From contig CAVTBR010000001.1 of the NCBI GenBank assembly GCA_963733055.1, positions 1,120,001-1,184,000 of the forward strand: a stretch of DNA of 64,000 nt, in the 5' to 3' direction. Under the pieces are notes generated by a model, which was not told the DNA's origin, searched no databases, and saw nothing but the letters and a program-made list of their open reading frames with translations. This document shows positions 37,322 through 62,332 of the stretch, in pieces; position 1 is the stretch's first letter, and each line of letters begins with the position of its first letter. This DNA comes from Candidatus Bathyarchaeota archaeon. Its GTDB lineage: Archaea; Thermoproteota; Bathyarchaeia; 40CM-2-53-6. Made by a program: the position numbers and the translations under genes.

Positions 37322-38146
37322 CTATGTGGGATTGAGGAACTTCTGTGCCTTAAGAAAATCTGCGGTCTCCTTCACCGCTGCCTTGTTGTCCGGTTTAGGA
37401 AGCACCTCAGCGGAGACCCAGTCTTCATACCCTATGTCTCGCAAGAGTCTTAGCTGTCCTTCGATCTTGAGGTGGCCGTGACCGGGGGGCCAACGGTCGC
37501 TATCGGCAATGTGAAAGTGTCCTATCCTCTCATGATACTTGCGCATGCTCTCCTCTATCGATGGTTCCTCAATGTTCATGTGAAAACTGTCCAAAAGAAT
37601 TCCCGTGGCCGTCAGTTGCTCAGCTTGAATTAGATCAGCCACATGGGCTGCAGTGTTCAGAAGAGAGGTCTCGTAACGGTTTATGGCCTCCAGAACGAGA
37701 CGAGCTCCCGATTCAGTTGCTGCTTTGTCACATTCCCTTAGGCTTTCAATGAGCAGCTCAACCGCATTATTCGCTGATGGGTTCCCTCTCACCATCCCGA
37801 TAACCACGACCGAATTCTCCGTGGACGCAAATCGAATGAGTCCCTTCACGATCCCGATTGCCTTTTCACGTATAGCCGGATCCGGATCGGTGAAGGAAAG
37901 GCCCTTTCCAAGGTAGATAAGGCCGGTTCCAATCGCGGCAAGCTGAAGGCCTTCGGCTCGTATTGAGTCTCTGATTCTCGAGAGTATGCTTTGATCGTCG
38001 AAGCTTAGGTTGAGCTCCACCCCGGTAAAGCCCTGCTCTCTCAGAAGTCGGAGAGCCTTCTCAAATTCGGCGAACGATGAAGCGTTCTCGAACAGGTTCG
38101 GAATCTGGTAACCTAAACCCGCCGAAACTACGAATGAGAAACGCAT
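37322..38146 (-). CDS. iolO: 5-keto-L-gluconate epimerase (IolO-like, xylose-isomerase TIM barrel)
   Basis: AIGTG..YL..GLSFTDPD, IGMVRG, EAINRYET, DSFHMNIEE, HIADSDRWPPG and VSAEVLP, as recalled for Thermotoga IolO; clustered with iolM/iolN. Confidence 0.8.
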   Translation of the reverse strand: MRFSFVVSAGLGYQIPNLFENASSFAEFEKALRLLREQGFTGVELNLSFDDQSILSRIRDSIRAEGLQLAAIGTGLIYLGKGLSFTDPDPAIREKAIGIVKGLIRFASTENSVVVIGMVRGNPSANNAVELLIESLRECDKAATESGARLVLEAINRYETSLLNTAAHVADLIQAEQLTATGILLDSFHMNIEEPSIEESMRKYHERIGHFHIADSDRWPPGHGHLKIEGQLRLLRDIGYEDWVSAEVLPKPDNKAAVKETADFLKAQKFLNPT

Positions 38147-38186
38147 TATTTCACGCGACCAGTTTACTTATTGATTTTGTTCGTAA

Positions 38187-38202
38187 GCTTGATTAATCAA
38201 GC
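38187..38202. promoter_or_regulatory. Perfect 16-bp palindrome, candidate operator
   Basis: GCTTGATTAATCAAGC between divergent iolO and the aminotransferase operon. Confidence 0.55.
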
Positions 38203-38239
38203 ATGCTGTTTCGGCGGCGTTACTTCGGTCGTATCTGAA

Positions 38240-39613
38240 TTGGCGAAGCTTGCGGCTTTGGGTGGTACGAAAACCGTTCAACTGCCAACGTATGAGTGGC
38301 CGGTTGAGTTCCTGAAACGCTACGGGCAAAGGGAGGCTGAGGCGGTTGCTAAGGTTATTCGGAGTGGGGTTGTTTGGGGAACCTTTGCTACCGAGATTTC
38401 CGCCTTCGAGCGCGAGTTCGCCCAGTATGAAGGTACGAAGTACGCGATCTTCATGAGTTCCGGCACGGCCGCACTTCACTGCGCGATGGCCGCGGCTGGC
38501 GTTCAACCGGGCGACGAGGTGATAACGAGTCCGCACACGTTCATCGGTTCAGCCTCATGCATCCTACAGCAGGGCGCAATCCCCGTCTTCGTAGACATCG
38601 ACCCAAGAACCTACACGGTAGACCCATCCAAAATCGAAGAGAAGATCAGCAAAGCAACCAAAGTTATCGAACCCGTCCACATCTACGGCCTACCTTCCAA
38701 CATGGATGCGATCCAGAAAATTGCTGACGCACATAACCTCGTTGTCGTTGAGGACTCATGCCAGGCTCATGGGGCGGAATACAAGGGAAAGAAAGTTGGA
38801 AGCGTCGGCGACATGGGCACCTTCAGCTTCAACGGAACCAAGAACATGCAGACTGGGGAAGGTGGTATGTTCGTCACAAACAGCGATGAGTATGCGGGAA
38901 CATCGGAGAAAGTCCGCATTTTCGGAGAATCCCTTCGTCCCGGCGTCGCACGGCCTTACATGGCGGGGGGCATGGGTTGGAACTACAAGTCAAACGAAAT
39001 AACCGCCGCCCTCGGAAGAGTACAACTGAGCAGGCTGAATGAGACAAACGCCGCGAGAATCGCAATGTCGGAATTCCTCACAAGCCGAATCAGCAAACTA
39101 CCGGGCCTGGTCCCTCCATTCATTCCGGATTACGCGAAGAGCGTTTACCATTACTACAAGATCCGGGTCGATCCAGCAAAAGTCGGCTCAAGGCTGCCTG
39201 CTAAGGACTTCAGGGATCGAGTCGTCGTGGCTCTGCAGGCGGAGGGCGTGAGGGCTGCGATCTGGTGTGCTAGGCCGATATACTTGCAGCCCGTCTTCCA
39301 ATCGAGGGAGGGTTGGGGCAAAGGGTTCCCCTGGAAGAGCCCCTACGTAACAAGAGACATCACCTACCCAGAAGGCCTCTGCCCAGTTGCGGAACGAATC
39401 TCCAACGAAACCTTCAACCTCTCACTTCACCCACCCAATGGCCTAGATTTGATGGAGCAGTATGCTCAGGCTTTCGAGAAAGTAATGGGACACACGGATG
39501 AACTGGAACAGGTGAAAGTCCCACCCTGGGAAGAATGGTGGGGCGGCTACGTCCCAGCGTTCGGCAAAAAGAAACAAGAGGCTAAACTGGAAGAAATATC
39601 AGGGTACCGCTAG
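38240..39613 (+). CDS. DegT/DnrJ/EryC1/StrS aminotransferase (inosose/aminocyclitol transaminase-like)
   Basis: Start probably TTG 38240 (MAKLAALGG...WP); SGTAAL, VEDSCQAHG and FSFNGTKNMQTGEGG (PLP Lys). Confidence 0.9.
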   Translation: MAKLAALGGTKTVQLPTYEWPVEFLKRYGQREAEAVAKVIRSGVVWGTFATEISAFEREFAQYEGTKYAIFMSSGTAALHCAMAAAGVQPGDEVITSPHTFIGSASCILQQGAIPVFVDIDPRTYTVDPSKIEEKISKATKVIEPVHIYGLPSNMDAIQKIADAHNLVVVEDSCQAHGAEYKGKKVGSVGDMGTFSFNGTKNMQTGEGGMFVTNSDEYAGTSEKVRIFGESLRPGVARPYMAGGMGWNYKSNEITAALGRVQLSRLNETNAARIAMSEFLTSRISKLPGLVPPFIPDYAKSVYHYYKIRVDPAKVGSRLPAKDFRDRVVVALQAEGVRAAIWCARPIYLQPVFQSREGWGKGFPWKSPYVTRDITYPEGLCPVAERISNETFNLSLHPPNGLDLMEQYAQAFEKVMGHTDELEQVKVPPWEEWWGGYVPAFGKKKQEAKLEEISGYR

Positions 39614-39671
39614 GAAACTCAAATACTCTGGTGACTAGAAGTCCTATTCGTTGAAAACTGAGGCCTGAATC

Positions 39672-40709
39672 TTGTCCTCTCTAACGGCGAATTCTGCGTT
39701 TGGGTATGACGTCTTCTTCCCTGCTTCAATTTTCAAAATGGTAACCGATGTTCGGGTGAACGATTCTGGGGTGATTGAGAAATCGGCTGGCCGTAGAAAG
39801 AAGAGGGAGAAGCTAACGGTTGATGGGAGACTAGCTATCCTTGCTGCCGATCATCCTGCGCGGAGGGTCACTAAGTCAGGTGACGATCCTCTAGCCATGG
39901 GAAACCGCCATAGCTACCTCTCCCGGGTTCTCAGAGTCGTAACTAGCCCGGAATTCGACGGTGTCATGGGGACGACGGACGTAATCGAAGACCTCCTAAT
40001 CGTTGACCAACTCATGGTCGAACACGGGGGCAAGAGCTTCCTTGATCGTAAAGTTCTGGTCGGGTGCATGAACCGTGGAGGTTTAAGCGGTTCAGAATTC
40101 GAAATGGACGATCGATTCACCTCTTTCACGGCCGACTCCGTCAACCGACTTCGCTTGGACGGCGCAAAGATGATGTTCAGGTTGGATCTGAAAGACACAA
40201 GATCCCTTGACACCATAGTATCCTGCGCCGACGCTGTTACACAATTAAACAAGCATTCGATCGCGGTCTTCCTTGAGGCGTTCAGCGTAGAAAAAACACC
40301 GGAAGGATACAAGGCGCAGAAGAGTGCTGGTGAGCTAATCAAAACGATAGGTGTGGCTACGGCACTTGGAGATTCATCACGCGGAATTTGGTTGAAAGTT
40401 CCATATTGTGACGGCTTTGATCGGGTGGCAAAATCAACCAGTTGCCCAATCCTGATGCTGGGAGGGGAATCATTGGGGAACTTGTCGGGAGTTTTCAAGG
40501 AATTCAGCGACGGTATGGCTGCAGGACAAACCGTTAGGGGGGCGCTCGTGGGACGGAACATTCTCTACCCTGGGCAGGAAGATCCGTCAGCTGTCGCCGA
40601 CGCCGTGAGCAAAATAGTGCACCAAAACTTCACAGTTGAACAAGCCCTCAGCCACATCAAATCGGTTCGCGGCCAGAACATGGGGAACCTGACCTCGGTA
40701 ATTGCGTGA
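39672..40709 (+). CDS. Cgl0159-like class I aldolase-fold barrel
   Basis: LAADHPAR, MNRGGL.G..FEMDDRFT, GAKMM, WLKVP, LMLGG and GALVGR; family associated with inositol clusters. Confidence 0.75.
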   Translation: MSSLTANSAFGYDVFFPASIFKMVTDVRVNDSGVIEKSAGRRKKREKLTVDGRLAILAADHPARRVTKSGDDPLAMGNRHSYLSRVLRVVTSPEFDGVMGTTDVIEDLLIVDQLMVEHGGKSFLDRKVLVGCMNRGGLSGSEFEMDDRFTSFTADSVNRLRLDGAKMMFRLDLKDTRSLDTIVSCADAVTQLNKHSIAVFLEAFSVEKTPEGYKAQKSAGELIKTIGVATALGDSSRGIWLKVPYCDGFDRVAKSTSCPILMLGGESLGNLSGVFKEFSDGMAAGQTVRGALVGRNILYPGQEDPSAVADAVSKIVHQNFTVEQALSHIKSVRGQNMGNLTSVIA

Positions 40710-41931
40710 AACCTTGACTGAGAACCTCCTCATAGCCCAATCAGGCGGACCGACCGCAGTCATTAACAGTAGTATCTCCGGGATCATCGAACAAGCCAAG
40801 CAACAGAGTAAAGTCGGCTCAATTTACGGCGCAGTAAATGGAATTCTCGGCGTCCTCAACGAGGATCTCGTCGACCTACGCCAAGAAGACCCGTCAACGA
40901 TCTCGATGCTCAGGAAAACCCCCTCCGCTGCTCTAGGCTCCTGCCGGTACAAGTTGACCAAAGACGACTATTCCCGGCTGCTGGAAGTCTTTGCGGCCCA
41001 CAACATTTCCTACTTCCTCTGCGCTGGCGGGAACGACTCCATGGATACAGCTCACAGGGTAGCTCAACTTGCTTCTGAAAGAAAATACGACGTAACGGTG
41101 ATTGGCGTCCCGAAGACCGTCGACAACGACCTTATGGTTACCGACCACTGTCCAGGATACGGGAGCGTCGCACGATTCAACGCGATCGCCGTCCGAGATT
41201 CCGGTTTGGACACAGAAGCCATCTACACAGCCGACCCAGTGAAGATCATCGAAACGATGGGCAGGGACACGGGTTGGATAACCGCAAGTACGGCCTTAGC
41301 TAGGGACGGGGCTGATAGTGCTCCTCATCTAATCTACCTGCCCGAACGCCCGTTTGGAGCAGCTAGTTTTCTTGCGGACGTCAAATCCATTCACGATAGG
41401 CTTGGAAGGGTTGTGGTATGCGTGTGTGAGGGGTTGAAGGATGAGAAGGGCGAATTCGTGAAGGCCTCCTCGAAACAGATAGACACGGACAAGTTTGGGC
41501 ACGCGCAACTAGGCGGTGTTGGAGATTATCTGGCGAGCTTAGTTTCTGAGAAGCTGAAAATCAAGGCGCGCTGCGATAAACCGGGAACAATTCAGAGAGT
41601 CTCAATGATGTGCGCGTCCCGGGTAGATCTGGATGAAGCCTACCGCGTAGGACAGGCTGCAGTCTCACAGGCCGTAGGTGGAGAGTCTGACAAGATGGTT
41701 ACATTGGTAAGAAGTTCGAACGATCCATACAAATGCGAAACTGGCCTCGTCGAACTGGAACAAGTCGCGCTCAAAACCAAGAAAGTTCCGATTGAATTCA
41801 TCAATAACGAATCCAACTTCGTCAGCGAGCGATTCCTCGATTACGCGAGACCTCTAATTGGCGGGCCACTGCCAGAATATGCTCATTTGGAGAGAAAAAG
41901 GGTAGGCAGACATCTCCCAGTCCGCGCGTAA
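40702..41931 (+). CDS. pfp: PfkA-family kinase with PPi-dependent signature
   Basis: AQSGGPTAVIN, GGNDS (Asp), PKTVDND (Lys), ETMGRDTGW. Confidence 0.85.
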   Translation: MRETLTENLLIAQSGGPTAVINSSISGIIEQAKQQSKVGSIYGAVNGILGVLNEDLVDLRQEDPSTISMLRKTPSAALGSCRYKLTKDDYSRLLEVFAAHNISYFLCAGGNDSMDTAHRVAQLASERKYDVTVIGVPKTVDNDLMVTDHCPGYGSVARFNAIAVRDSGLDTEAIYTADPVKIIETMGRDTGWITASTALARDGADSAPHLIYLPERPFGAASFLADVKSIHDRLGRVVVCVCEGLKDEKGEFVKASSKQIDTDKFGHAQLGGVGDYLASLVSEKLKIKARCDKPGTIQRVSMMCASRVDLDEAYRVGQAAVSQAVGGESDKMVTLVRSSNDPYKCETGLVELEQVALKTKKVPIEFINNESNFVSERFLDYARPLIGGPLPEYAHLERKRVGRHLPVRA

Positions 41932-41994
41932 CTCTCGCTGGGAGCGGCTGGCAAGTCTTTTCTATTGGATGAGTTGATTCGAGCGAGGATTCGT

Positions 41995-43175
41995 ATGGCG
42001 CAGAAACAAGTCGCAGCAGTTTTACACGCTGACTGGAAGGCACGGCCAGACTACAAGCCCACGGACGAGGAATTGAGAACTAAACGGGCTACCTATGCGA
42101 GCAGGGTTTGGCACAACCCGAGGGTGGTAGTTGAAGAGATCCCGATCCCCGAAGTTGGGCCGAAAGATGTCCTGGTCCGGTTGAAGGCATGTGGCATCTG
42201 CGGATCTGACATGCACCTCTACGAGAGCGACAAGGACGGTTACATTCTGTACCCAGGCCTCGTGAAGACCCCCGTGGTTCTCGGCCATGAACTCTCAGGT
42301 CAGGTAGAGAGGGTGGGAAGTGAGGTTTCTAACTTGAAACCCGGCGACATGGTCGTTTGTGAGGAGATGTGGTGGTGTGGTGAATGCGATCCGTGTAGGA
42401 CCGGTTACCTCAATCAATGCATCAACCTGATGGAAATGGGCTTCACCGACAACGGCGGCTGCGAGCAATACATGAACATCCACTACAAATTCTGCTGGAA
42501 AATTAACGATTTCAAGAAAGTCTTCAAAACTGAAGACAAGATTTACGAAGCCGGTTCACTCGTCGAACCAGCATGCGTTGCATACAACGCCATGTTCGTA
42601 CGCGCGGAAGGCTTCAAACCAGGCTCCGCGGTGGTTGTCTGGGCGCGGGCCCAATTGGTTTAGGTGCGATTGCTCTCGCGAGAGCCGCCGGTGCGGGGAA
42701 GGTCATCGCGTTTGAGCCCCGCAACAAGCGCGCGGAGATTGCAAGGCAAGTAGGTGCGGACGAGGTTTTCGACCAATTCGCGCTGCTCAAATCTGGAACT
42801 CAGCCTTGGGAGAAAATATTGGAGTTGACTGGTGGGGAAGGGGTTGACATGCACGTCGAGTCTGCGGGCGACCCAACTTTCGTCATGCCCCAAGCCGAAC
42901 GCTGTATGAACTTCGGCGGGAAGATCGTCGACATTGGAAGAGCGGATAAGGCCTCGCCGGTTTTCTTTGAACTATACCAAGTAAGGGCCTTGCAGGCGTA
43001 TGGGAGCCAAGGGCATGCAGGTGGCGGTGTGTGGCCTAACGTTATCAAACTCATGGCCTCGGGGAGGGTGGACACGACGAAGATCATCACAAGCCGCTAC
43101 GGTGTCTCAGACGTGCCCAAAGCCCTTGAAAAACTAAAGGACCGCGAAGACGCCAAAGTCACCATCAAACCCTAA
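41995..43175 (+). CDS. iolM: scyllo-inosose 3-dehydrogenase (IolM), split by a -1 frameshift at 42641-42643
   Basis: LHADW..RPDYK, GYILYPGL, EEMWWCG, GSLVEP and GSQGH as recalled for Thermotoga IolM; adding one G to TGGGCGCG restores VWGAGPIG. Confidence 0.85.
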
Positions 43176-43204
43176 CACCCGCGAAAATATCTCGAGATAG
43201 AGAT

Positions 43205-44380
43205 ATGCAATACCGGGAACTCCACGCGCCTAACATAGGCGTTGGGTTGGTGGGGTATAGCATCGGCAGGGTTCACACCCACGCCTGGCTGAACATGCCT
43301 CTACACTACTACCCCCCACCCGCAAAACCAATACTCGTGGCGGTCGCCGGACGAAACCGTGACCGTCTGACGGCTTTTGCAGAGAAATTTGGTTACAAGA
43401 AAACATACGACAACGCAATGAACCTCGTGAAGGACCCTGAGGTTGACGTCGTCGATTTATGCACGCCACCCTTCGCTCACTCCGAGATAGCAATCCAGGC
43501 GTGCGAGTTGGGAAAGCATGTCATCTGCGAAAAGCCCCTCGCTCGAACGGGTAAAGAAGCTCAAACGATGCTTCGTGCCGCAGAAAGGGCCGGCGTTAAA
43601 CACATGGCCGCTTTCAATTACAGATTCATACCTGCGGTCAGCTTTGCAAGGAAGCTTATCATGGAAGGGTTTGTTGGGCGCGTGCTCAGTTTTCGTGGAG
43701 CGTACTTGAACGTGGAAGTGGGCGATCTAGGATACATCAACCCCGACTTTCCGCTTGATTGGCACTTCAAGAATGAAACCGCTGGGTACGGAGCGCTCAG
43801 CGACCTAGGATCACACATCCTGGACCTCGCAAGATATCTTGTCGGAGAGATCGCTTCAGTGGCGGGTGCAACTGCGACCTACGTTAAAGAACGCCCTCTG
43901 CCAGAATCACCCGGGAAGAAGGGAAGGGTAGAAGTGGACGATTCAACCGTCGCCGCGGTGAAATTCGCAAATGGCGCTTTGGGGACGATTGAAGCTAGCT
44001 GGATGGCGCCGGGGAGAAAGGACTTTCTCCGGTTCGAAATCCTTGGAAGTGAGGGATCGCTCCGTTTCAACCTCGAACGCCTAAATGAGCTCGAAATATT
44101 TTCGCTCAAAGACCCGAACGAGCTTAGAGGCTTCAGGGATGTTTGGACAACTTCCAAGACCCATCCTTACATGGATAAGTTCTGGTTTGAACAGGGAGGG
44201 GGGTTCGGTTGGGACCACGCATTCGTAAACGAAGTTCACCATTTCACCAACTGCATAGTCAACGACAAACCGGTCGAACCGGAAGGGGCAACGTTTCTGG
44301 ACGGGTATAGGAATTGTTTGGTTATGGATGCGATCGCTAAATCTGCGTCGACAGACCGCTGGGTTCACATCGCGAACTAA
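43205..44380 (+). CDS. Gfo/Idh/MocA oxidoreductase (resembles the levoglucosan-dehydrogenase-like subgroup)
   Basis: CEKPLA, AFNYRF, GALSDLGSH, VDD and HPY motifs. Confidence 0.85.
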   Translation: MQYRELHAPNIGVGLVGYSIGRVHTHAWLNMPLHYYPPPAKPILVAVAGRNRDRLTAFAEKFGYKKTYDNAMNLVKDPEVDVVDLCTPPFAHSEIAIQACELGKHVICEKPLARTGKEAQTMLRAAERAGVKHMAAFNYRFIPAVSFARKLIMEGFVGRVLSFRGAYLNVEVGDLGYINPDFPLDWHFKNETAGYGALSDLGSHILDLARYLVGEIASVAGATATYVKERPLPESPGKKGRVEVDDSTVAAVKFANGALGTIEASWMAPGRKDFLRFEILGSEGSLRFNLERLNELEIFSLKDPNELRGFRDVWTTSKTHPYMDKFWFEQGGGFGWDHAFVNEVHHFTNCIVNDKPVEPEGATFLDGYRNCLVMDAIAKSASTDRWVHIAN

Positions 44381-44436
44381 ATCTTGAATCTTAAATACGC
44401 AAACTCCTCTCCCTGAACAGAACGGTGTATTGTGAA

Positions 44437-45408: not shown

Positions 45409-45461
45409 CCTCTCATCTTTCTGAGAAAGTAGGCCACGAAGGATCTAAACAGAGTTCATTT

Positions 45462-45497
45462 GAGAAAGAAAGAAAATCAGGCGGAAGCAGTCCGCCT
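45462..45497 (-). terminator. Hairpin plus T-tract terminator after the micro-ORF
   Basis: 7-bp stem AGGCGGA/TCCGCCT (45479-45497), then GATTTTCTTTCTTTCTC on the minus strand. Confidence 0.65.
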
Positions 45498-45512
45498 CTC
45501 TGGCAAGAGAAC

Positions 45513-45593
45513 TTAAGCTACTTGTTCCTCTTGTCTTATGTTCTTGTCGTGCTCCTTACCTAAGCTCATCTTAACTTTGCGTTTCTTGGCCAT
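45513..45593 (-). CDS. 26-aa basic micro-protein
   Basis: MAKKRKVKMSLGKEHDKNIRQEEQVA; GGAGGTG 8 nt upstream of the ATG, TTAAATA box near 45643-45649, terminator downstream. Confidence 0.65.
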   Translation of the reverse strand: MAKKRKVKMSLGKEHDKNIRQEEQVA

Positions 45594-45729
45594 CCCTCAA
45601 ACACCTCCACTAATTGTCTAGAAACACCATATGTCGTTCAAGTATTTAACGCGGCTTGGAGAGAAAGTCCTAAAGAGTAATTATGCCCAATTTCCACTCG
45701 GTAGAAATTAAGCCAGCATAGGCCTTAGC

Positions 45730-48011: not shown

Positions 48012-48101
48012 ACCACAATTCTCCAGGCTTCCTGATTGAGCGAAGATAGTTATGTTATATTCGATTGTTGTGGAAAGTTCAGCCGAGAATGTTTGGCGAC
48101 C

Positions 48102-55366: not shown

Positions 55367-55381
55367 AGCAGCTCAAACTAG

Positions 55382-55416
55382 CACCCACCCCGCTATTTCT
55401 GATTCGGGGTGAGGTG
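55382..55416 (+). other. GC-rich hairpin after the SBP gene
   Basis: CACC-CACCCCG ... CGGGGTG-A-GGTG; likely mRNA stabiliser or attenuator. Confidence 0.5.
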
Positions 55417-55457
55417 ACACAAGCATATTTCGCGATAGAGGCTCGGTCTAAAGCGAA

Positions 55458-56480
55458 ATGAACATAGCAACGTACATCTTACGCAGAGTAGGCTTCGGCG
55501 TTATCGTAGTACTCAGCGTCATGACGATAACATTCGTGCTATCGCATAGCCTTGGCGGGGACCCAATTTACGCCTGGTTGGGAAAAGCGGCCGGTATGCA
55601 TCCCGACCTCGCTCAGGCTTACATCCAGAAGTATCATCTCCACGACCCGGTATACGTTCAGTACTACTTCTATCTGGTGAACTTGGCGCAAGGGAACATG
55701 GGATATTCGCCCTCGCGCAATTTTATTCCTGTTACTCAGGCAATTGCAGAAAGTCTTCCGTACACGATCCAAATAGCATTATTCGCAATTATCATAACAC
55801 TCGCTGTGGGCGTACTCTTAGGAGTTGTATCTGCTCGGTATCATCATACACCAATTGACGCCGCGATTCGAGGCTTCTACTTGACCGGTTATGCCTCCCC
55901 GCCGTTCTTCGTGGCGTTGATATTGCTAATCATATTCACATACTTTCTTGGTATTTTGCCGAGTGGTGAAGCTTTTGATCCGAGCTTTACGAGACCATAT
56001 TGGATCACTGGAATACCGGTCATTGACGGGGTGCTTGAAGGGAATTTCTCGTATAGTGCCAGCGCCTTTACCCATTTGATTCTCCCGAGCGCTGCGCTCG
56101 CGCTGGTGACTTTTGGAATCGTAACCAGAGTGCTCCGCAGCTCACTCCTCGAAATCATGCATACTAATTACATCCGAACCGCTCGAGCGAAGGGGCTTGA
56201 TGAGAACACGGTATTCTATAAGCACGGTCTCCGGCACGCACTCATTCCGATAGTATCGCTCTCTTCTCTGATCGTAACATGGCTGATAACGGGAACGATT
56301 TTCGTGGAGAATGTGTTCTCGTACCCTGGACTGGGTCGTTATCTGGTTCAAGCGCTTAACGGGGAGGACTACCCGGGAATACTCGGAGCGGCCATAGTAT
56401 ATGCGCTTGTTATTGTCGCGGCCAACTTGGTCGCAGATATCCTGTACGCAGTCGTCGATCCTCAAGTCAGACTTGGTTGA
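55458..56480 (+). CDS. oppB: Opp/Dpp ABC permease
   Basis: YIRTARAKGL EAA loop, ENVFSYPGLG, DPQVR. Confidence 0.92.
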   Translation: MNIATYILRRVGFGVIVVLSVMTITFVLSHSLGGDPIYAWLGKAAGMHPDLAQAYIQKYHLHDPVYVQYYFYLVNLAQGNMGYSPSRNFIPVTQAIAESLPYTIQIALFAIIITLAVGVLLGVVSARYHHTPIDAAIRGFYLTGYASPPFFVALILLIIFTYFLGILPSGEAFDPSFTRPYWITGIPVIDGVLEGNFSYSASAFTHLILPSAALALVTFGIVTRVLRSSLLEIMHTNYIRTARAKGLDENTVFYKHGLRHALIPIVSLSSLIVTWLITGTIFVENVFSYPGLGRYLVQALNGEDYPGILGAAIVYALVIVAANLVADILYAVVDPQVRLG

Positions 56481-56489
56481 TGTCAACCT

Positions 56490-57371
56490 TTGGAGTCCAA
56501 GACAGTTAGCCATCGCTTTTCCGTCGCTACTCGCAACTTTTTCTCGCTAGTCTTTAGAACAAAGGAAGGCGCGATTGGATTTGGAATCGTAACCATGTAT
56601 CTAGTAACTGCAGTCGTCGTTTTGTTGGCAGGACTGTTCAAATTTACGGTGACACCTTATGACCCTCTCTTGCAAAGCGTAGGTCCTTCCCTTGGACCGC
56701 CATCGACATCCCACCTGTTTGGAACAGACTTTCTCGGCCGTGACGTGTTTAGTCGGGTCATTTGGAGTCTACCCAACGATTTGTTTGTTAGCTTCGCCGT
56801 GGTAGGGATCGCTCTCGTTGCTGGCGCCATAATCGGCGCAGTCGCAGCATTCAAAGGGGGTTTGCTCGACGAGCTACTAATGCGGTTCACTGACGTGATA
56901 TTTTCGCTTCCGGCGTTGGTGATAGCAATGGTAATCGCAGTCGCTCTCGGTCCGGGGCTAATCCACATGATGATTGCGTTGATGATAATATGGTGGCCAC
57001 CCTACGCACGAGTCGCAAGGGGAGAGGCGTTACGAGTTTCGCACCAGAACTACATTGAAGCTGCCCGATTCGCTGGCCAGCGAACCGTTGGAATAATATT
57101 CAAACACGTACTGCCAAACATTTCGTTGACATTACTCATTTACGCGACGCTTGATGTCGCAACCGTGGTCTTGACTTATGCGGGTTTGAGCTACCTTGGA
57201 TTATCAGTGAGGCCACCCCAACCTGACTTGGGTGAGATGATCAGCACATCTCAGGACTATTTGATTACAGCCCCATGGCTGCCAATCATCCCTGGTCTTG
57301 TGATCGCGCTTGCGGTCGTTGGTTTTAGTCTTCTGGGAGATGGGCTCAGAGATGCTTTGGAGGCGGGATAG
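56490..57371 (+). CDS. oppC: Opp/Dpp ABC permease
   Basis: HLFGTDFLGRDV, YIEAA, LGDGLRD. Confidence 0.92.
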   Translation: MESKTVSHRFSVATRNFFSLVFRTKEGAIGFGIVTMYLVTAVVVLLAGLFKFTVTPYDPLLQSVGPSLGPPSTSHLFGTDFLGRDVFSRVIWSLPNDLFVSFAVVGIALVAGAIIGAVAAFKGGLLDELLMRFTDVIFSLPALVIAMVIAVALGPGLIHMMIALMIIWWPPYARVARGEALRVSHQNYIEAARFAGQRTVGIIFKHVLPNISLTLLIYATLDVATVVLTYAGLSYLGLSVRPPQPDLGEMISTSQDYLITAPWLPIIPGLVIALAVVGFSLLGDGLRDALEAG

Positions 57372-58432
57372 TGGGGTCGCTCCTGGATATTCAGGATCTC
57401 ACCGTAGCCTACGCTACAAAAACGGGGCCAATAACGGCTGTTGACCATGTCAACTTACAACTCCAGCAGGATGAATTCCTCGCCATAGTCGGGGAGTCAG
57501 GATGCGGAAAATCCACGCTTGGCCTCTCCATAATCGGCCTACTTCCAAAACCGCCAGCGAAAATCGTTGAAGGATCGATTCAATACAAGGATACGGACCT
57601 CGTCCAGCTCCCCCGGAACAAAATCAGAGAATACCGCGGGACCGAAATTGCTATGATTTTCCAGGAACCATTAACCAGCCTCAGCCCAGTCTACAGAATA
57701 GGCGATCAGATTGCTGAAGCGATCATGATTCGCGAGTCAAGGAAGGATGGAAACGCGAGTACTGACAGCGAGATCATGCAAAGAACCTACAAAAGAAACG
57801 CTCGCCTAATCAAACGTACCCTGAGGTTTAAGCGCAAAATTCCCGCCGACCTTCAAGAAGAGGTAATTCGTTACCTGACGTTGGTTAGAATCGGTGACCC
57901 CGAACAGGTTCTGGAACGCTACCCGTTTGAATTGTCCGGCGGAATGACGCAGCGCGTTATGATTGCGATGGCGCTATCCCAAGAACCTGCGTTGCTCCTT
58001 GCCGATGAACCAACGACAGCCCTCGATGTAACCACTCAGGCCCAGGTGCTCAAGCTGATGAAAGAACTCATCCGGAAGGTAAGAACAAGTATTCTACTCG
58101 TGACTCACGACTTGGCGGTTGCAAGCCAAGTTGCCGACAGAGTCGTCGTTATGTATGCGGGTCAGATAGCTGAAGACGCCGACGTAATCAGCTTATTCTC
58201 ACACCCATTGCACCCCTACACTCAAGGTCTCCTTTCTTGTATCCCATCAGGCTACAAGGACGACAGCCAGCTCAAACCGATTTCGGGCTCACTTCCAGAT
58301 CTGAGAAGCGTGCAAATCGGTTGCAGATTCGCACCTAGATGCCCGCACGCCATGGCGGTTTGCAATAAACAGCCCCCCCACCTGATCCAACACGGGAACA
58401 CGCAGAAGGTGTCATGTTTCCTTTATGACTAG
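57371..58432 (+). CDS. oppD: Opp/Dpp ABC ATPase
   Basis: GESGCGKS, LSGGM, DEPTTALD, HPYT, Cys-rich tail. Confidence 0.95.
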   Translation: MGSLLDIQDLTVAYATKTGPITAVDHVNLQLQQDEFLAIVGESGCGKSTLGLSIIGLLPKPPAKIVEGSIQYKDTDLVQLPRNKIREYRGTEIAMIFQEPLTSLSPVYRIGDQIAEAIMIRESRKDGNASTDSEIMQRTYKRNARLIKRTLRFKRKIPADLQEEVIRYLTLVRIGDPEQVLERYPFELSGGMTQRVMIAMALSQEPALLLADEPTTALDVTTQAQVLKLMKELIRKVRTSILLVTHDLAVASQVADRVVVMYAGQIAEDADVISLFSHPLHPYTQGLLSCIPSGYKDDSQLKPISGSLPDLRSVQIGCRFAPRCPHAMAVCNKQPPHLIQHGNTQKVSCFLYD

Positions 58433-59420
58433 CACAACAGAAACCATACTCCGAACTGAGAATCTTAAGAAATACTTCCCTATCCGCAAGGGATTCAACC
58501 CATTCCTTCGCCGCGAACAACGCTTCGTTAGGGCTGTGGATGGAGTCTCGATCAGTGTCCAGAAAGGGAAAACCGTTGCGATAGTTGGCGAGTCTGGTTG
58601 CGGAAAAACCACCCTCGCAAGAACAATTGGACTAATGATGCAGCCTTCAGGAGGGAAACTCTACTTTGAAGAGAGGGATATTACCGAGGGTAAGATTGAC
58701 CGGAACCAGATCTACCGCGACATGCAAATGGTCTACCAGGACCCCGAGTCCTCTCTGGATCCTCGGATGAAAATCGGACAGTCGATAGGCGAGCCACTCC
58801 ATGGTTTAATGCGATGGGAGAAGAAAGTTGTCAACGATGCCGTGAGGAGAAGCCTCGAGCGCGTTGGCCTTTCAGCAGAGTTCGCGGAACGTTTACCCCG
58901 ACAGCTCAGCGGAGGGCAAAAGCAGCGAGTTGCAATAGCGAGAGCGATTGCGATTCAACCCTCACTTGTAATCTTGGACGAACCTACGAGTGCCCTGGAT
59001 GCCTCTGTTCAAGCGCAGATTCTCAAGCTACTGCTTGACATTCAGAAGGAGTTCAACCTCACGTACATTCTAATAACCCATAACATCGCGGTTGCAAAGT
59101 ACATGGCCGACTTCGTTGCAGTAATGTACGCCGGCAATGTTGTGGAACACGGACCTTGCAAGACAGTGATTTCCAAGCCACGACACCCTTACACCATCGC
59201 TCTAATCTCCTCAGCCCCGGTTCCAGACCCGACCACCCGCAACCTCCTCCAAACCGAAATCAAGGGAGAAGTACCCAGCGCGATAGACCCACCATCAGGG
59301 TGTAAGTTCCACCCGCGATGCCCATTCGCCGAAGGCATCTGCACTTCGTCAGTCCCGCAGCTTGAAGAGATTTCCCCAGGCCACTTCGTCGCCTGCCACT
59401 TTGTCAATAAAACCGCGTAG
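58425..59420 (+). CDS. oppF: Opp/Dpp ABC ATPase
   Basis: GESGCGKT, LSGGQ, DEPTSALD, GCKFHPRC. Confidence 0.95.
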   Translation: MTSTTETILRTENLKKYFPIRKGFNPFLRREQRFVRAVDGVSISVQKGKTVAIVGESGCGKTTLARTIGLMMQPSGGKLYFEERDITEGKIDRNQIYRDMQMVYQDPESSLDPRMKIGQSIGEPLHGLMRWEKKVVNDAVRRSLERVGLSAEFAERLPRQLSGGQKQRVAIARAIAIQPSLVILDEPTSALDASVQAQILKLLLDIQKEFNLTYILITHNIAVAKYMADFVAVMYAGNVVEHGPCKTVISKPRHPYTIALISSAPVPDPTTRNLLQTEIKGEVPSAIDPPSGCKFHPRCPFAEGICTSSVPQLEEISPGHFVACHFVNKTA

Positions 59421-59508
59421 TCATTACCTAACGGATTATGATTAATGCGGCAGAGAAAAGTCGTTATAGAAGCACCGTATTTCGGACAACATTCTGGTCG
59501 AATGAGCC

Positions 59509-60498
59509 ATGCCTCAAGTTAGCATCGGTATAGTGGGCTTAGGAACACAAGCGCAGAACCACCTACTCGTGCTTTCACGCGATAACAGAGTTCGGCTAGC
59601 CGGTGTCTCAGACATCTTGACCCCAATCGCTGAATCAACGGCTAAGAAATATGGATGCAAGAGCTACAGAACCTATCAGGAATTGATCGACTCGGAGAAA
59701 CTGGATGCAATTTGGGTTGTGACCCCCAACGTTTTCCATCATGAGGCATTGAAATATGCCCTGTCAAAGGGACTCAACATCTTCTGCGAGAAACCTATGG
59801 TCATTAAATTAGATCACGCCCGCGAACTAATCAAGCTGGTAGAATCCGCGGGCGTAACCTTTCAGGTAGGACACAACCGCAGATTCGCGTTGGTGTACAA
59901 GAAGACGAAACAGCTCCTAGCTTCCGGGAAGATCAAGCCATACATGGTCGTCATGAAGATGGTTACGGGAGAATTACAGCGCCCAGCGTGGGGGGCTGAC
60001 CCGAAAATCTCAGGCGGTCATCTCTACGACACTACGCTCCATATGCTCGACATGGCACGATGGCTATTCGGAGAAGTCAAGGAGGTTAATTGCCGAGCCG
60101 AAGCGAACGTATACCCAGGCATCCTCAACGATTTTTGGATCAACCTGACCCATAACTCGGGACTTCACGTGCCGATATTCACGTCCGGACACGCATCGTG
60201 GATAGTTCCCTTCGAACGAGTAGAAATAATCGGCGACCACGCGACCATCATCACCGAAGAGATGAACAGAGTCAGCTACACGCTCAGCTTAGACACGCCG
60301 ACAGAAGTAGAAGAGTTCCATTACCTACCCCAAACGCTCAGTTGGGGTGTTGAAGAAGAAGACAAACTGTTCATCGACGCCATCATCGGAAAACAAAAAC
60401 CTCCAGTGACGGTTTATGATGGATGCAAGGCTGTCGAAATAATCGAGGCCTGTTACCGTTCAGCCGAGTCCAGAAAACCCATCTCACTCCCACTCTAA
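59509..60498 (+). CDS. Gfo/Idh/MocA dehydrogenase (inositol-dehydrogenase-like)
   Basis: GIVGLG, CEKPM, GHNRRF, DTTLHMLD. Confidence 0.88.
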   Translation: MPQVSIGIVGLGTQAQNHLLVLSRDNRVRLAGVSDILTPIAESTAKKYGCKSYRTYQELIDSEKLDAIWVVTPNVFHHEALKYALSKGLNIFCEKPMVIKLDHARELIKLVESAGVTFQVGHNRRFALVYKKTKQLLASGKIKPYMVVMKMVTGELQRPAWGADPKISGGHLYDTTLHMLDMARWLFGEVKEVNCRAEANVYPGILNDFWINLTHNSGLHVPIFTSGHASWIVPFERVEIIGDHATIITEEMNRVSYTLSLDTPTEVEEFHYLPQTLSWGVEEEDKLFIDAIIGKQKPPVTVYDGCKAVEIIEACYRSAESRKPISLPL

Positions 60499-60501
60499 GG
60501 A

Positions 60502-61329
60502 TTGAAGGGAATCTTGAAACCATGCCTTAACCAGGACACGCTCAAGACTACTCCTACCGACAGATTCCTCGAGATCTCGAGCAAATACGGGTTCGATGCG
60601 GTAGAGTTTACAATCGATAAAATTGAAGCCACTTTACAAAACAAGACCCTCCCCGAAGTTAAAGCCTTAGTTAACCAAAAAAGACTCTCAGTCGCGAGCA
60701 TTAACGGCCCCGAAAACTTCAACTTGCTAAACGATCGGGCGTTCACGGAACTTCTCGACCGCACAGATAAGATCGTGAAAGCCGCTGGAGAACTTGATTG
60801 CCGACTACTCGTTCCGGTTCCTTCACCCGCCAGCGAAGGGATAGCTCAAGAAACTTCCGTAGCCCAAACGGCTTCGGCCCTATCGAAGATGGCTGACCGT
60901 TACGGATCTGGAGTCAGGTTGGGCCTAGAATTTCTTGGCATGAGCAATTGCAGCATAAATAACCTGCAGGCTGCGATCGAAACGATAAGACGCGTGAATA
61001 AGCCGAATGTCGGCCTCGTACTGGACTCATTCCATATGCATGTCAGCGACTCCAAATTCTCCGATATCGGCCGGTTGACGGCTGATCAGGTTTTTCTGGT
61101 GCACGTTAACGATTCTGAAAAGGGAGACAAGAAGAAACTCACGGATGCCAACCGCCTGTATCCAGGAGAAGGAGACATCAACTTGAAGGCGTTTGCCTAC
61201 GCTCTGAAGGGGATCGGGTACGACTACTACCTCAGCCTAGAACTACTTCGCCCGACCTATTGGGAGCAGGAACCAGGAGAAGTCGCGAAGAAAGGGCGTA
61301 ATTCTCTAAGTCACGTATTCGGTATATGA
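60502..61329 (+). CDS. IolI-like inosose isomerase
   Basis: CLNQDT, LEFLG, CSINN, NVGLVLDSFH, HVND, RLYPGEG and SLELLRP, close to recalled Bacillus IolI motifs. Confidence 0.8.
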   Translation: MKGILKPCLNQDTLKTTPTDRFLEISSKYGFDAVEFTIDKIEATLQNKTLPEVKALVNQKRLSVASINGPENFNLLNDRAFTELLDRTDKIVKAAGELDCRLLVPVPSPASEGIAQETSVAQTASALSKMADRYGSGVRLGLEFLGMSNCSINNLQAAIETIRRVNKPNVGLVLDSFHMHVSDSKFSDIGRLTADQVFLVHVNDSEKGDKKKLTDANRLYPGEGDINLKAFAYALKGIGYDYYLSLELLRPTYWEQEPGEVAKKGRNSLSHVFGI

Positions 61330-61348
61330 ACGATGGCTTGAGTTTGGG

Positions 61349-62332
61349 TCAGTAATTGGCGTGAATCTGCGGCTTAACCAATCTTTCGTAAACCGATTGA
61401 ATGCCCGTCATGGTTTTGCTATCTAAAGGTGGGAGTGTGCCGGCGCGGGCATTCTCCTCGATCTGTTCTATGTGTTTGGCTCCTGGGATTGCGCAAGTCA
61501 CGGCGTCGAACATCCAGATCCACCTTAGAGCCATTTGGGTCAGGTTCATGCCCGGCGGGACTAACCGTTTCAATTCTTCTACCGCCGCGACTCCTCTGTC
61601 GAGGTCAACTCCCGAGAAGGTTTCACCTCTGTCGAAAGATTCGCCGTGTACGTTGTAATTTCGATGGTCGTCGCTCGGAAACTTGGTTTCAGGTCTTATT
61701 TTTCCGGTGAGCAGGCCACTTGCGAGCGGGACACGGGCCAATATCCCAACTTTCCGTTCCTTTGCCTTCGGGAAGAATTCATCTATTGGCTTTAGGCGGA
61801 ACATGTTGAATATGATTTGGACACTTTGAACGTCTGGGTATTCGATTGACTTCAACGCTTCACTTACTTTCTCAACGCTTACCCCATAATTTCGGATTTT
61901 GCCTTTTGATTTCAGGTGGTCGAGAGCCTTGAAAACTTCAGGGCGGGAGTAAACTGGAGTGGGTGGACAGTGCAACTGCAATAGGTCGAGTGAGTCAACA
62001 TCTAGGTACTTTAGGCTGCGATCAACGAATGCCTCGAGATTTTTCAGGTTGTAACCTTCCGGAACGTGCGGGTCGAGGCGTTGTCCGGCTTTCGTGGCCA
62101 CGAAGATTTCTTCTTTGCGCTCTTTCAACAGTCGTCCAATTAGTTTCTCGCTACGGCCGTCACCATAAACGTCCGCCGTGTCGATAAAATTGACCCCTAG
62201 ATCGACTGCGCGATTCAGAACAGCGTTCGACTCCTTATCATCAACATGTCCCCAGTCGCTTCCTATTGGCCACGCCCCAAAACTCACTACTGACACTCGC
62301 ATGCCCGTGTGTCCCAACTCGCGGTACTCCAA
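61349..62332 (-). CDS. Aldo/keto reductase (IolS-like subfamily)
   Basis: FGAWPIG, DTADVYG, ATK, LQLH, GVS, IPGAK. Confidence 0.92.
   Translation of the reverse strand: MEYRELGHTGMRVSVVSFGAWPIGSDWGHVDDKESNAVLNRAVDLGVNFIDTADVYGDGRSEKLIGRLLKERKEEIFVATKAGQRLDPHVPEGYNLKNLEAFVDRSLKYLDVDSLDLLQLHCPPTPVYSRPEVFKALDHLKSKGKIRNYGVSVEKVSEALKSIEYPDVQSVQIIFNMFRLKPIDEFFPKAKERKVGILARVPLASGLLTGKIRPETKFPSDDHRNYNVHGESFDRGETFSGVDLDRGVAAVEELKRLVPPGMNLTQMALRWIWMFDAVTCAIPGAKHIEQIEENARAGTLPPLDSKTMTGIQSVYERLVKPQIHANY

Follow-up and report, generated by a model that had tools for sequence, protein, structure and literature searches.

A locus in a Bathyarchaeia-like archaeon that may combine Thermotoga-type inositol ring opening with a kinase-aldolase pair

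In Thermotoga maritima, IolM, IolN and IolO convert scyllo-inosose to 5-dehydro-L-gluconate and, reversibly, to D-tagaturonate (intermediates are named here as in the available part of PMC5931981). Among archaea, canonical iolB, iolC, iolE and iolG genes are reported for soil Thaumarchaeota in the accessible text of PMC10640624, and our literature search found no publication describing an IolM-IolN-IolO cluster in archaea. Among IolN loci from other genomes, IolM and IolO-like homologues were each present in 39 of 80, and where the flanks reached 5 kb or more on each side (36 loci), both accompanied IolN in 17, a co-location that exceeds chance. The three genes occurred together in 12 archaeal-labelled loci (Bathyarchaeota, Nitrososphaeria-labelled and Asgard) and in many bacteria; the trio is thus widespread in MAGs and not particular to the archaeon described here.

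The window analysed is a stretch of 64,000 nucleotides from a genome that is 96% complete and whose SSU rRNA (1452.5 bits on the archaeal model) identifies this soil organism as an archaeon. The cluster lies at 37322-62332, and the loci closest to it come from Bathyarchaeia MAGs. Searches with Pfam and NCBIfam profiles recovered, at its position, every gene that an earlier note on this DNA had named (Table 1). That inventory was incomplete, having missed the aldolase, the phosphofructokinase (PFK)-family kinase and the DAO-family oxidoreductase, and iolM is not a single open reading frame as assembled; it consists of two overlapping ones in different frames (41965-42663 and 42573-43175). VapBC-type modules are found on the flanks of the locus. 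With belief and doubt about evenly matched, we read the locus as a hybrid inositol catabolic cluster in which Thermotoga-type ring-opening genes are joined by a kinase-aldolase pair.

Table 1. Features of the cluster and the matches on which their names rest (positions in the window)
Feature	Position	Strand	Basis or remark
IolO-like candidate 5-keto-L-gluconate epimerase, xylose-isomerase-like TIM barrel (XI_TIM)	37322..38146	-	NF041099, TM0416
DegT/DnrJ/EryC1-family PLP aminotransferase, heads + strand operon	38171..39613	+	PF01041 330 bits
Cgl0159-like class I (DHAP-type) aldolase	39672..40709	+	PF22649, PDB 3fok
PPi-type PFK-family kinase	40702..41931	+	NF010675; 8-nt overlap with aldolase gene
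iolM, scyllo-inosose 3-dehydrogenase, frameshifted	41965..43175	+	NF041097
Gfo/Idh/MocA dehydrogenase 1 (Gfo1), scyllo-inositol/levoglucosan dehydrogenase subfamily	43205..44380	+	NCBIfam, PDB
iolN, 3-dehydro-scyllo-inosose hydrolase, creatininase fold	44425..45408	+	NF041098, PF02633
Zn-dehydrogenase 2	45730..46758	-	NCBIfam IolM 230 bits, Tdh 216 bits, each below cut-off
Zn-dehydrogenase 3	46851..48131	-	Pfam ADH_N + ADH_zinc_N; syntenic in L003, L031
IolI-like TIM-barrel isomerase 1	48036..48929	+	top PDB 1i60 (B. subtilis IolI), E 2e-25
APC-family permease	48956..50584	-	PF13520
DAO-family FAD oxidoreductase, sarcosine/N-methyltryptophan oxidase-like	50626..51780	-	PF01266 220 bits
Class-III aminotransferase, GSA-aminomutase-like	51834..53204	-	NF000818 460 bits, cut-off 398
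Opp/Dpp-type ABC importer: SBP_bac_5, two permeases, two ATPases	53453..59420	+	
Gfo/Idh/MocA dehydrogenase 2 (Gfo2), IolG-like	59509..60498	+	TIGR04380, PDB
IolI-like TIM-barrel isomerase 2	60502..61329	+	top PDB 1i60 (B. subtilis IolI), E 2.6e-37
Aldo-keto reductase (AKR)	61349..62332	-	PF00248 220.8 bits
19.3-kb block, iolM to IolI-like gene 2, missing in L083	41966..61247	.	blastn

The Thermotoga-type core proposed in the earlier note held to differing degrees. IolN is a clear family member (529 bits on NF041098, equivalog cut-off 245, with a PF02633 match), and IolM belongs by similarity though its gene is broken. The IolO-like protein, single-copy in the host genome, has NF041099 as its nearest family but falls under the threshold (243.5 bits, cut-off 300); its top PDB chain is TM0416 (2zvr, E 1.2e-42). 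Gfo1 scored 362 bits on the NCBIfam LevoglcsnDh model (cut-off 650) and 126 bits on iolG, and matched 6a3f (E 7.7e-96), the scyllo-inositol dehydrogenase 5ya8 (E 1.7e-50) and TM0414 (3ezy, E 5.8e-23). Gfo2 reached 172.6 bits on iolG, under the cut-off of 355, with PDB matches to 3cea, 4hkt and 3ezy (E 1.5e-27 to 4e-22), and a pair of the Gfo2 and IolI-like 2 type lies near IolN in four other loci (L021, L028, L039 and L054). In other loci, a homologue of Zn-dehydrogenase 2 is frequently located between IolM and IolN. The two Gfo/Idh/MocA dehydrogenases and two IolI-like isomerases make the intake of several inositol isomers, also suggested earlier, plausible.

The lack of canonical iolE, iolD and iolB seen in the window extends to the whole genome. 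UxaA, Mannitol_dh-type reductases, UxuA and IolB had no match in the host genome (PF04295, PF01232, PF03786, PF04962; E<=0.001), and neither IolD (251 bits, cut-off 715) nor IolE (38.5 bits, cut-off 290) was found there above cut-off. Since the genome encodes none of the known routes for tagaturonate or fructuronate, D-tagaturonate, to which the earlier note had led the pathway, is not a usable end product here.

The aldolase, single-copy in the genome, scored 243.9 bits on PF22649 and matched PDB 3fok at E 8.7e-52; its residues K166, E202 and K242 are invariant across nine homologues, and a structural model of mediocre confidence (pLDDT 67.9) had DHAP-type class I aldolases as Foldseek neighbours. 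The kinase, which carries the motifs GGNDS and PKTVDND, reached 520.7 bits on NF010675, a curated PPi-PFK subfamily model with a cut-off of 273. Its identity to the host's two canonical PFKs, one of which lies within a TIM-PFK-FBPase-class I FBA cluster, is 28% and 23%; as judged from sequence, the cluster kinase is not the glycolytic PFK, for both canonical enzymes are encoded elsewhere. The 38 aldolase-linked kinases retain the catalytic TxDND motif and the Asp/Lys pair that we take to mark a PPi-type kinase. At the site where E. coli PfkA contacts the 6-phosphate of F6P they have a conserved loop particular to them, R-x-[DE]-K-P-G-[TL]-x-x-R, and, unlike PfkA, do not retain Arg162 and His249, but at an 85% criterion no position cleanly discriminated linked from unlinked kinases. 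Gene context suggests a keto-hexuronate substrate, an assignment that could fall either way, as passing the PPi-PFK model is compatible with an F6P kinase.

Of 86 aldolase loci from many phyla, 44 have a kinase homologue next to the aldolase gene, whereas in a sample of 80 loci from the wider PRK14072 PFK family (39-52% identity) none held the aldolase, IolN, IolM or IolO. The two genes are a conserved module, here sharing an operon. IolN was within the fetched flanks of only 10 of the 86 aldolase loci. The module is not tied to inositol, since two same-genus genomes with the aldolase (G233, 90% complete; G272, 75% complete) had no IolN match and six IolN-positive genomes from other genera of the class lacked the aldolase. 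Elsewhere its neighbours include IolN/IolO, tartronate-semialdehyde reductase, hydroxypyruvate-type reductase and glycerate 2-kinase genes. A tartronate-semialdehyde-reductase-like gene is near the module in four loci; the one scanned (L119) scored 371.5 on TIGR01505 (cut-off 340.75), and another (L131) reads IolN-IolO-ABC-aldolase-kinase-XI_TIM-reductase. A 2-hydroxyacid dehydrogenase is near it in 13 loci, and XI_TIM-aldolase fusions occur in four. In a same-genus locus (L086), a hydroxypyruvate/glyoxylate reductase-like gene and an XI_TIM gene precede the aldolase and kinase, and glycerate 2-kinase and AKR genes follow. These neighbours point to tartronate semialdehyde and glycerate. The AKR gene directly follows the kinase in L083 and L086; by inference, it is a candidate tartronate-semialdehyde reductase. 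The host also encodes a tartronate semialdehyde reductase (358.9 bits, cut-off 340.75) in a different context, beside a GarL-like aldolase, and a glycerate 2-kinase.

Taken together, we favor, at roughly even confidence, a route from inositol through a keto-hexuronate to PPi-dependent phosphorylation and aldol cleavage, yielding DHAP and glycerate. In its upper steps, assigned by family membership, the Gfo/Idh/MocA dehydrogenases, aided by the IolI-like isomerases, would form scyllo-inosose by oxidising myo-, scyllo- or chiro-inositol, IolM would oxidise it further to 3-dehydro-scyllo-inosose, IolN would hydrolyse the ring to give 5-dehydro-L-gluconate, and the IolO-like epimerase would interconvert this with D-tagaturonate. 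The reductase/dehydratase/KDG branch would play no part in the host. The kinase, acting either ahead of the epimerase or following it, would phosphorylate, at the expense of PPi, the primary hydroxyl adjoining the keto group of the 2-keto-hexuronate, and the aldolase would then split the phosphorylated keto-acid into DHAP and tartronate semialdehyde. Either the neighbouring AKR or the contig 3 reductase may convert the latter to D-glycerate, which glycerate 2-kinase would then phosphorylate. Such a lower part would parallel IolC/IolJ of the canonical inositol pathway and, likewise, the tagatose-6-phosphate pathway.

A purely Thermotoga-type pathway, in which D-tagaturonate is passed to unrecognised non-homologous enzymes (spare Zn-dehydrogenases or the AKR as reductase, plus an unrecognised dehydratase) and the pair are PPi-PFK- and FBP-aldolase-like bystanders, is unlikely. 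It would fit the kinase's score above the PPi-PFK cut-off, the three spare dehydrogenases/reductases in the cluster and the missing aldolase in IolN-positive Bathyarchaeia of other genera. However, canonical PFKs, FBA, FBPase and TIM are grouped elsewhere in the genome, which has no UxaA- or UxuA-type dehydratase; the aldolase is of the Cgl0159 family, not FBA (on NF040816 its C-terminus scores no more than about 34-36 bits); and the pair recurs beside IolO-like epimerases, tartronate semialdehyde reductase, hydroxypyruvate-type reductase and glycerate kinase. It is very improbable that the pair act as IolC/IolJ analogues on 5-dehydro-2-deoxy-D-gluconate in a disguised canonical route, with XI-type TIM barrels as dehydratase and IolN replacing IolD. 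Cgl0159-like proteins are indeed related to DUF2090, a proposed DKGP aldolase according to the accessible part of PMC9007349, and remoter aldolase homologues (37-46% identity) keep company with IolB, a TPP IolD-like enzyme and PfkB (L132, L152, L166), but the host lacks IolB and any IolE or IolD above cut-off, and IolN and IolM (the latter via an intact orthologue) match the Thermotoga enzymes at equivalog level. No locus combines PfkB (present in 3) with the PFK-like kinase (present in 44), which suggests two sub-functions in the aldolase family; the PFK-like kinase also occurs in one of five IolB loci (L099) and one of seven TPP-enzyme loci (L165).

We also consider it improbable that the main substrate is another cyclitol or keto-sugar, such as an amino-cyclitol (e.g. 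scyllo-inosamine), a 3-keto-glycoside or a levoglucosan-type compound, which Gfo/XI_TIM pairs would oxidise and isomerise while the DegT, DAO and class-III enzymes strip amino groups. The top matches of Gfo1 are levoglucosan dehydrogenases, DegT heads the operon with a paralogue beside IolO in L087-L089, and the DAO gene is syntenic among relatives; yet Gfo1 is well below the levoglucosan dehydrogenase cut-off and its gene separates iolM from iolN, both spare TIM barrels resemble IolI most, and the IolN match is at equivalog level. With iolM frameshifted as assembled, the inositol route would function only if the break is an assembly error. That the locus is instead decaying, iolM being a true pseudogene and ring opening lost in this strain, seems quite unlikely. 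The one-base shift falls directly ahead of the Rossmann motif, among 42 loci with both halves detected, 37 keep them in one stop-free frame, VapBC-type modules flank the locus, and same-genus L083 has lost the entire 19.3-kb block (the blastn alignment leaps from window position 41965 to 61248 at L083 position 12294), leaving as a scar the last ~80 nt of IolI-like gene 2. Against decay, the break is a single absent G in a G-run (42641-42643), a typical assembly error, and a second Zn-dehydrogenase elsewhere in the host genome is split likewise. Compared with intact orthologues, the halves retain 77-84% identity; the sole stop in frame 1, six codons downstream, is brought by the shift itself. 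A relative's contig has one extra G behind 42640; coverage from a near-identical run (X1) did not extend to this position. On NF041097 they score 304.6 bits (profile 3-213) and 201.6 bits (213-388), together spanning 3-388 with a sum of 506 bits. The cut-off of this model is 450, and an intact orthologue (L085:5651-6829) reaches 512.5.

Amino-cyclitol intake, the other extension made in the earlier note, is hinted at by DegT, which matched 8gyh (E 3.9e-75), 7b0d, a 'glutamine--scyllo-inositol transaminase' (E 3.5e-71), and 2-deoxy-scyllo-inosose aminotransferases (~1e-48); this enzyme might conceivably bring in scyllo-inosamine-type compounds. The DAO, class-III, APC and Opp genes are not tied to any substrate. 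The DAO oxidoreductase (160.8 bits on NF008425, under the 257 cut-off) and the Opp/Dpp binding protein are both syntenic in L003, L031 and L089. The class-III aminotransferase, which scored 448.4 bits on hemL, under the 527.3 cut-off, has eight further matching places in the host genome by tblastn.

The host genome (2.88 Mb on three contigs, 96% complete) has an SSU rRNA that scores 1452.5 bits on the archaeal model, and the closest loci elsewhere, at 83–87% nucleotide identity, come from MAGs labelled Bathyarchaeia or Bathyarchaeota. Every gene listed in an earlier note, which had described a cyclitol catabolic cluster in the window, was found at its coordinates, and the cluster itself was confirmed, except that one gene (iolM) is broken and three had been left out: an aldolase, a kinase of the phosphofructokinase (PFK) family and a DAO-family oxidoreductase (see table). 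In the (+) strand operon the gene order is DegT, aldolase, kinase, iolM, Gfo1 (a Gfo/Idh/MocA dehydrogenase), iolN (38171–45408), with gaps of at most 58 nt; the IolO-like gene is transcribed divergently from it. For both spare TIM barrels the closest solved relative is Bacillus subtilis IolI (1i60; E 2e-25 and 2.6e-37). Synteny with relatives (loci L003, L031, L085 and L089) extends to IolN, both Zn-dehydrogenases, an IolI-like gene, the DAO gene and the Opp binding protein. The likeness of DegT to scyllo-inosose-type transaminases makes amino-cyclitol use possible. An Rfam scan of the window gave no matches, and a tRNA search found none.

Assignment to the Thermotoga families rests on NCBIfam equivalog models and the TM0416 PDB chain. 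IolN scores 529 bits against the NF041098 equivalog cut-off of 245, over profile positions 1–307, and shares an operon or divergon with IolM and the IolO-like gene in the window; in control genomes, one of five matches to the model lay above the cut-off. From family membership, IolN is predicted to hydrolyse the ring of a diketo-inositol. Relatives also carry a creatininase-fold paralogue (L085:4559–5485; L089:15909–17015), 42–43% identical to IolN, whose function may be other than IolN's. Because this paralogue also passes the cut-off (318 vs 245 bits), NF041098 may cover more than one activity. The IolO-like protein, at 243.5 bits, falls under the NF041099 cut-off of 300, and its orthologue in L089 scores 239.2 bits; TM0416 (2zvr) is by far its best solved relative (E 1.2e-42, the next PDB match being at 2e-19).

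IolM was found as two ORFs in different frames, not as a single uninterrupted protein above the 450-bit cut-off of NF041097; the halves score 304.6 bits (profile positions 3–213) and 201.6 bits (213–388). The frameshift lies at a run of three Gs at 42641–42643, immediately ahead of the Rossmann glycine motif. An intact orthologue (L085:5651–6829; 77–82% identical) scores 512.5 bits, and where both halves were found, 37 of 42 loci read in a single frame without a stop. In X3, a sequencing run holding a relative about 92% alike, a contig of that relative has an extra G at exactly this break; X1, a near-identical run, had no piece across 42584–43300. An error of assembly is plausible since a second Zn-dehydrogenase paralogue in the genome, outside the window (G000:C1:995583–996672), is likewise split between two frames, near C1:996455–996478. 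The two split genes together hint at assembly indel errors or at ongoing gene decay. On the same contig, a TPP-enzyme homologue (G000:C1:1014901–1016398) lies in two consecutive pieces covering profile positions 42–351 and 392–578, and could be one more split gene or an enzyme that naturally has two parts.

A survey of IolN with one genome per species gave 256 pattern matches, 240 of which encode relatives, and the best 80 of these 240 were analysed. Among these best 80, 12 loci carry archaeal labels (4 Bathyarchaeota, 2 Nitrososphaeria-labelled and 6 Asgard) and none is from Thermotoga; 39/80 have an IolM homologue, 39/80 an IolO-like homologue, and both partners occur in 17 of 36 loci flanked by at least 5 kb on each side. 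A quick maximum-likelihood tree of IolN (77 rows, made up of 74 loci, the window and an outgroup of two paralogues, with six loci of short or interrupted matches left out) placed the window with one Bathyarchaeota and two Nitrososphaeria-labelled sequences (SH-aLRT 94 and 97) and the Asgard sequences in a separate clade (100). Both groups sit amid bacterial lineages, and support for the deep nodes is weak. Of 301 genomes sampled evenly across the window's class, 11 have IolN above cut-off; the IolN route occurs rarely and patchily within the class. The Thermotoga-type trio in archaea is of a kind already covered by annotation models, and our search found no literature account of these enzymes in archaea. 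Soil Thaumarchaeota are reported to have gained canonical iolB/C/E/G genes (PMC10640624), a paper on hadal Thaumarchaeota has di-myo-inositol-phosphate synthesis only, and one on Dysosmobacter uses the dehydratase route.

The ring-opening enzymes would yield 5-dehydro-L-gluconate or D-tagaturonate, with the Thermotoga intermediates taken as in PMC5931981. Beyond this point, neither an E. coli-type or Thermotoga-type continuation from D-tagaturonate nor the canonical dehydratase route is recognisable. Whole-genome searches, in a genome 96% complete, gave no match for altronate dehydratase (PF04295), mannonate dehydratase (PF03786), a uronate reductase of the Mannitol_dh type (PF01232) or IolB, and the best scores for IolD and IolE were 250.9 (cut-off 715) and 38.5 (cut-off 290). 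Control genomes matched as expected, T. maritima among them for UxuA and Mannitol_dh. The earlier note had not recognised the canonical iol genes in the window, and for IolB, IolD and IolE this extends to the whole genome. We tentatively propose, stopping just short of calling it probable, an undescribed phosphorylative cleavage of keto-uronates. A PPi-dependent PFK-family kinase would add phosphate to the primary hydroxyl adjoining the keto group, giving 6-phospho-5-dehydro-L-gluconate or tagaturonate 1-phosphate, and a Cgl0159-family class I aldolase would split this product into DHAP and tartronate semialdehyde, which would be reduced to glycerate and then phosphorylated. Such a route would complete the Thermotoga-type inositol pathway in Bathyarchaeia; in Asgard archaea, Chloroflexota, Armatimonadota, Bacteroidota and other groups, the module would handle keto-sugar acids from other sources. 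The proposal builds on observed family memberships, gene order, absences and recurring neighbourhoods; all lower-branch substrates, PPi use and the relative order of epimerase and kinase are what we infer. Among the genome's own genes are a tartronate semialdehyde reductase (358.9 vs 340.75), next to a GarL-like aldolase, and a glycerate 2-kinase. The earlier note's reading, in which this archaeon funnels inositols and amino-cyclitols into the Thermotoga ring-opening route, is supported in part.

The kinase passes the PRK14072 'PPi-PFK' subfamily model NF010675 (520.7 vs 273 bits) and could be read as the cell's glycolytic PFK. Against that role, two canonical PFKs are encoded elsewhere in the genome (381 and 368 bits, cut-off 253), one of them in a TIM–PFK–FBPase–FBA cluster, and the kinase is just 28% and 23% identical to them. 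That compact glycolysis/gluconeogenesis cluster (G000:C3:189300–193020, locus L173) comprises TIM, a PFK with PPi-type residues, a class 1 FBPase and an archaeal class I aldolase. The operon kinase keeps the catalytic TxDND motif and has Asp and Lys at two positions that we take to be markers of PPi use in PFKs. In E. coli, R162, R243, H249 and R252 are the residues that hold the 6-phosphate of fructose 6-phosphate. Equivalents of R243 and R252 are kept in 38 aldolase-linked kinases, in which R162 is replaced by P/T/K/N and H249 by T/L; unlinked members vary there too. Common to the 38 is a loop, R-x-[D/E]-K-P-G-[T/L]-x-x-R, which sits where E. coli PfkA holds the 6-phosphate. No position separated linked from unlinked kinases at an 85%/5% criterion. 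The aldolase belongs to the Cgl0159 family (PF22649, 243.9 bits; 3fok, E 8.7e-52), and its Lys166, Glu202 and Lys242, invariant in nine homologues, would be equivalent to the catalytic residues of LacD. Its structure model is mediocre (pLDDT 67.9; TM 0.53 to 3fok) and therefore speaks to fold class only; the Foldseek neighbours are DHAP-type class I aldolases (ADH synthase, LsrF, archaeal FBA, YihT and LacD). A role as the DKGP aldolase of the canonical inositol pathway might also be considered, as the related family DUF2090 was proposed from fitness data to be that missing enzyme (PMC9007349). The aldolase here does not have the canonical context of IolC, IolB and IolD, and its partner kinase is of the PFK family.

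Across genomes, a kinase of this type adjoins the aldolase in 44 of 86 aldolase loci, or 23 of the 45 with at least 3 kb on each side. Among 80 loci of the wider PFK subfamily (39–52% identity, flanks up to 6 kb), which serve as a control and not as a census of the aldolase-linked clade, aldolase, IolN, IolM and IolO were found in 0/80. Neighbours in the 86 aldolase loci include a 2-hydroxyacid dehydrogenase (13), an IolO-like TIM barrel (11), IolN (10), a second TIM-barrel type (10), an aldehyde dehydrogenase (8), a TPP IolD-like enzyme (7), IolB (5), a GarR-type reductase (4) and PfkB (3). The representative of the GarR-type reductases scores above the equivalog cut-off for tartronate semialdehyde reductase (371.5 vs 340.75). 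At L131 a single strand carries IolN, an IolO-like gene, an ABC transporter, aldolase, kinase, an IolO-like TIM barrel and a tartronate-semialdehyde-reductase-like gene, and at L119 and L165 the reductase and IolO-like genes are divergent from aldolase and kinase. In L086, from the window's genus, aldolase and kinase are flanked by a glyoxylate/hydroxypyruvate reductase-like gene (444 vs 455) and a TIM barrel on one side and by glycerate 2-kinase-like and AKR genes on the other. The three PfkB loci each have IolB and the TPP enzyme, hold the most distant aldolase homologues and never have the PFK-like kinase, which is present in one IolB locus (L099) and one TPP-enzyme locus (L165). In 4 of the 86 loci (L095:8981–11011, and L104, L113 and L157), a xylose-isomerase-like TIM barrel is fused to the Cgl0159-like aldolase, at L095 as one 677-aa protein; the hosts are Clostridia/Bacillota and an Asgard MAG. 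The aldolase was found in 6 of the 301 sampled genomes of the window's class, all within its genus (6/13); two of these six have no IolN match, and six IolN-positive genomes of other genera in the class are without the aldolase. Given this uneven co-occurrence, and IolN in only 10/86 aldolase loci, the pair looks like a general keto-sugar-acid module that is here coupled to inositol.

One same-genus locus, L083, aligns to window positions 39618–41965 and resumes at 61248–64000, keeping aldolase, kinase, AKR and M20 peptidase. A 19.3-kb block, from iolM to the second IolI-like gene, could have been inserted into the window or deleted from the L083 lineage. L083 still has the final ~80 nt of that IolI-like gene, and because the 3′ end of the block's last gene remains, insertion was rejected and we conclude that the L083 lineage deleted the block. 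The scar at L083:12230–12360 (window 41965 / 61248) is precise, and upstream of the L083 aldolase just 154 bp of the DegT 3′ end is left.

Rodionova et al. in 2013 reportedly described the T. maritima inositol pathway, TM0411–TM0416 (IolG, IolM, IolN, IolO). The same families are clustered here (a dehydrogenase, a second dehydrogenase, ring hydrolase and epimerase), but in an archaeon and with a first dehydrogenase of the scyllo-inositol/levoglucosan dehydrogenase subfamily. Instead of a TM0415-type ribokinase-family kinase and a UxaE/UxuB/UxuA or UxaB/UxaA continuation, the operon has the PFK-family kinase and Cgl0159-like aldolase. In the tagatose-6-phosphate pathway, tagatose-6-phosphate kinase is followed by LacD, a class I tagatose-1,6-bisphosphate aldolase. 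Both systems would pair a kinase with a class I DHAP aldolase whose substrate is a tagato-configured ketose, the distal group here being a carboxylate and not a phosphate; identity to LacD is 14–15% in a structural alignment that uses the mediocre model. The moc genes of Sinorhizobium serve catabolism of rhizopine (scyllo-inosamine) and, as here, join a Gfo/Idh/MocA dehydrogenase, a TIM-barrel protein and transport, with amino-cyclitol deamination hypothetical in our cluster. The canonical myo-inositol pathway ends with IolC, a PfkB kinase, and then IolJ or a DUF2090 aldolase, which converts DKGP to DHAP and malonate semialdehyde (PMC9007349). The proposed logic is the same, namely phosphorylation of the primary hydroxyl beside the keto group of a 5-keto-hexonate and aldol cleavage to DHAP and a C3 acid semialdehyde, and the aldolase here comes from a related class I family. 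The differences are that a PFK-family kinase with PPi-type residues stands in place of PfkB, and that IolE, IolD and IolB are absent. Since the substrate, unlike that of the canonical pathway, would keep its 2-hydroxyl, tartronate semialdehyde would be formed. In the L-glucose pathway of Luteolibacter, LguG is a 5-keto-L-gluconate 4-epimerase, acting alongside LguC/B, the PPi-preferring KDG kinase LguH and LguE (PMC12632266). Epimerisation of 5-keto-L-gluconate to D-tagaturonate and a PPi-preferring sugar-acid kinase would be common to both; Luteolibacter reduces and dehydrates tagaturonate to KDG before phosphorylation, a branch whose homologues were not found here.

Phytate and membrane lipids make inositol an abundant carbon source in soil, and as Bathyarchaeia are uncultured, their substrates are inferred from genomes alone. 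The coupled kinase–aldolase exit is an uncharacterised variant worth testing. If the lower branch is true, a widespread kinase whose present annotation is phosphofructokinase and the uncharacterised Cgl0159 aldolase family would each gain a function, 2-keto-hexuronates would have a short, PPi-saving way out to DHAP and glycerate, and pathway reconstructions in which this kinase figures as a glycolytic PFK would need correcting.

Elsewhere in the window, two VapBC-like toxin–antitoxin remnants lie just left of the cluster (35859–37141), and an archaeal type IV pilus-like locus occupies 4178–12689. Immediately past the AKR, the M20 peptidase scores above the equivalog cut-off for the Sulfolobus-type carboxypeptidase CpsA (605.8 vs 500 bits) and is 96% conserved in L083.

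Positions in the window of genes added to the cluster and of neighbouring features
Feature	Position	Remark
Two adjacent T2SSF-domain ORFs	4178–5059 and 5061–5732	Pilus-like locus; different frames
T2SSE ATPase	5986–7572	Pilus-like locus
Prepilin peptidase	11892–12689	Pilus-like locus
PIN-domain ORF	35859–36365	VapBC-like remnant
AbrB/SpoVT-like small ORFs	36308–36562 and 36878–37141	VapBC-like remnants
Truncated PIN-like ORF	36712–36906	VapBC-like remnant
Cgl0159-like aldolase	39672–40709	Absent from the earlier list
PFK-family kinase	40702–41931	Absent from the earlier list; 8-nt overlap with aldolase
DAO-family oxidoreductase	50626–51780	Absent from the earlier list
M20 peptidase	62415–63608
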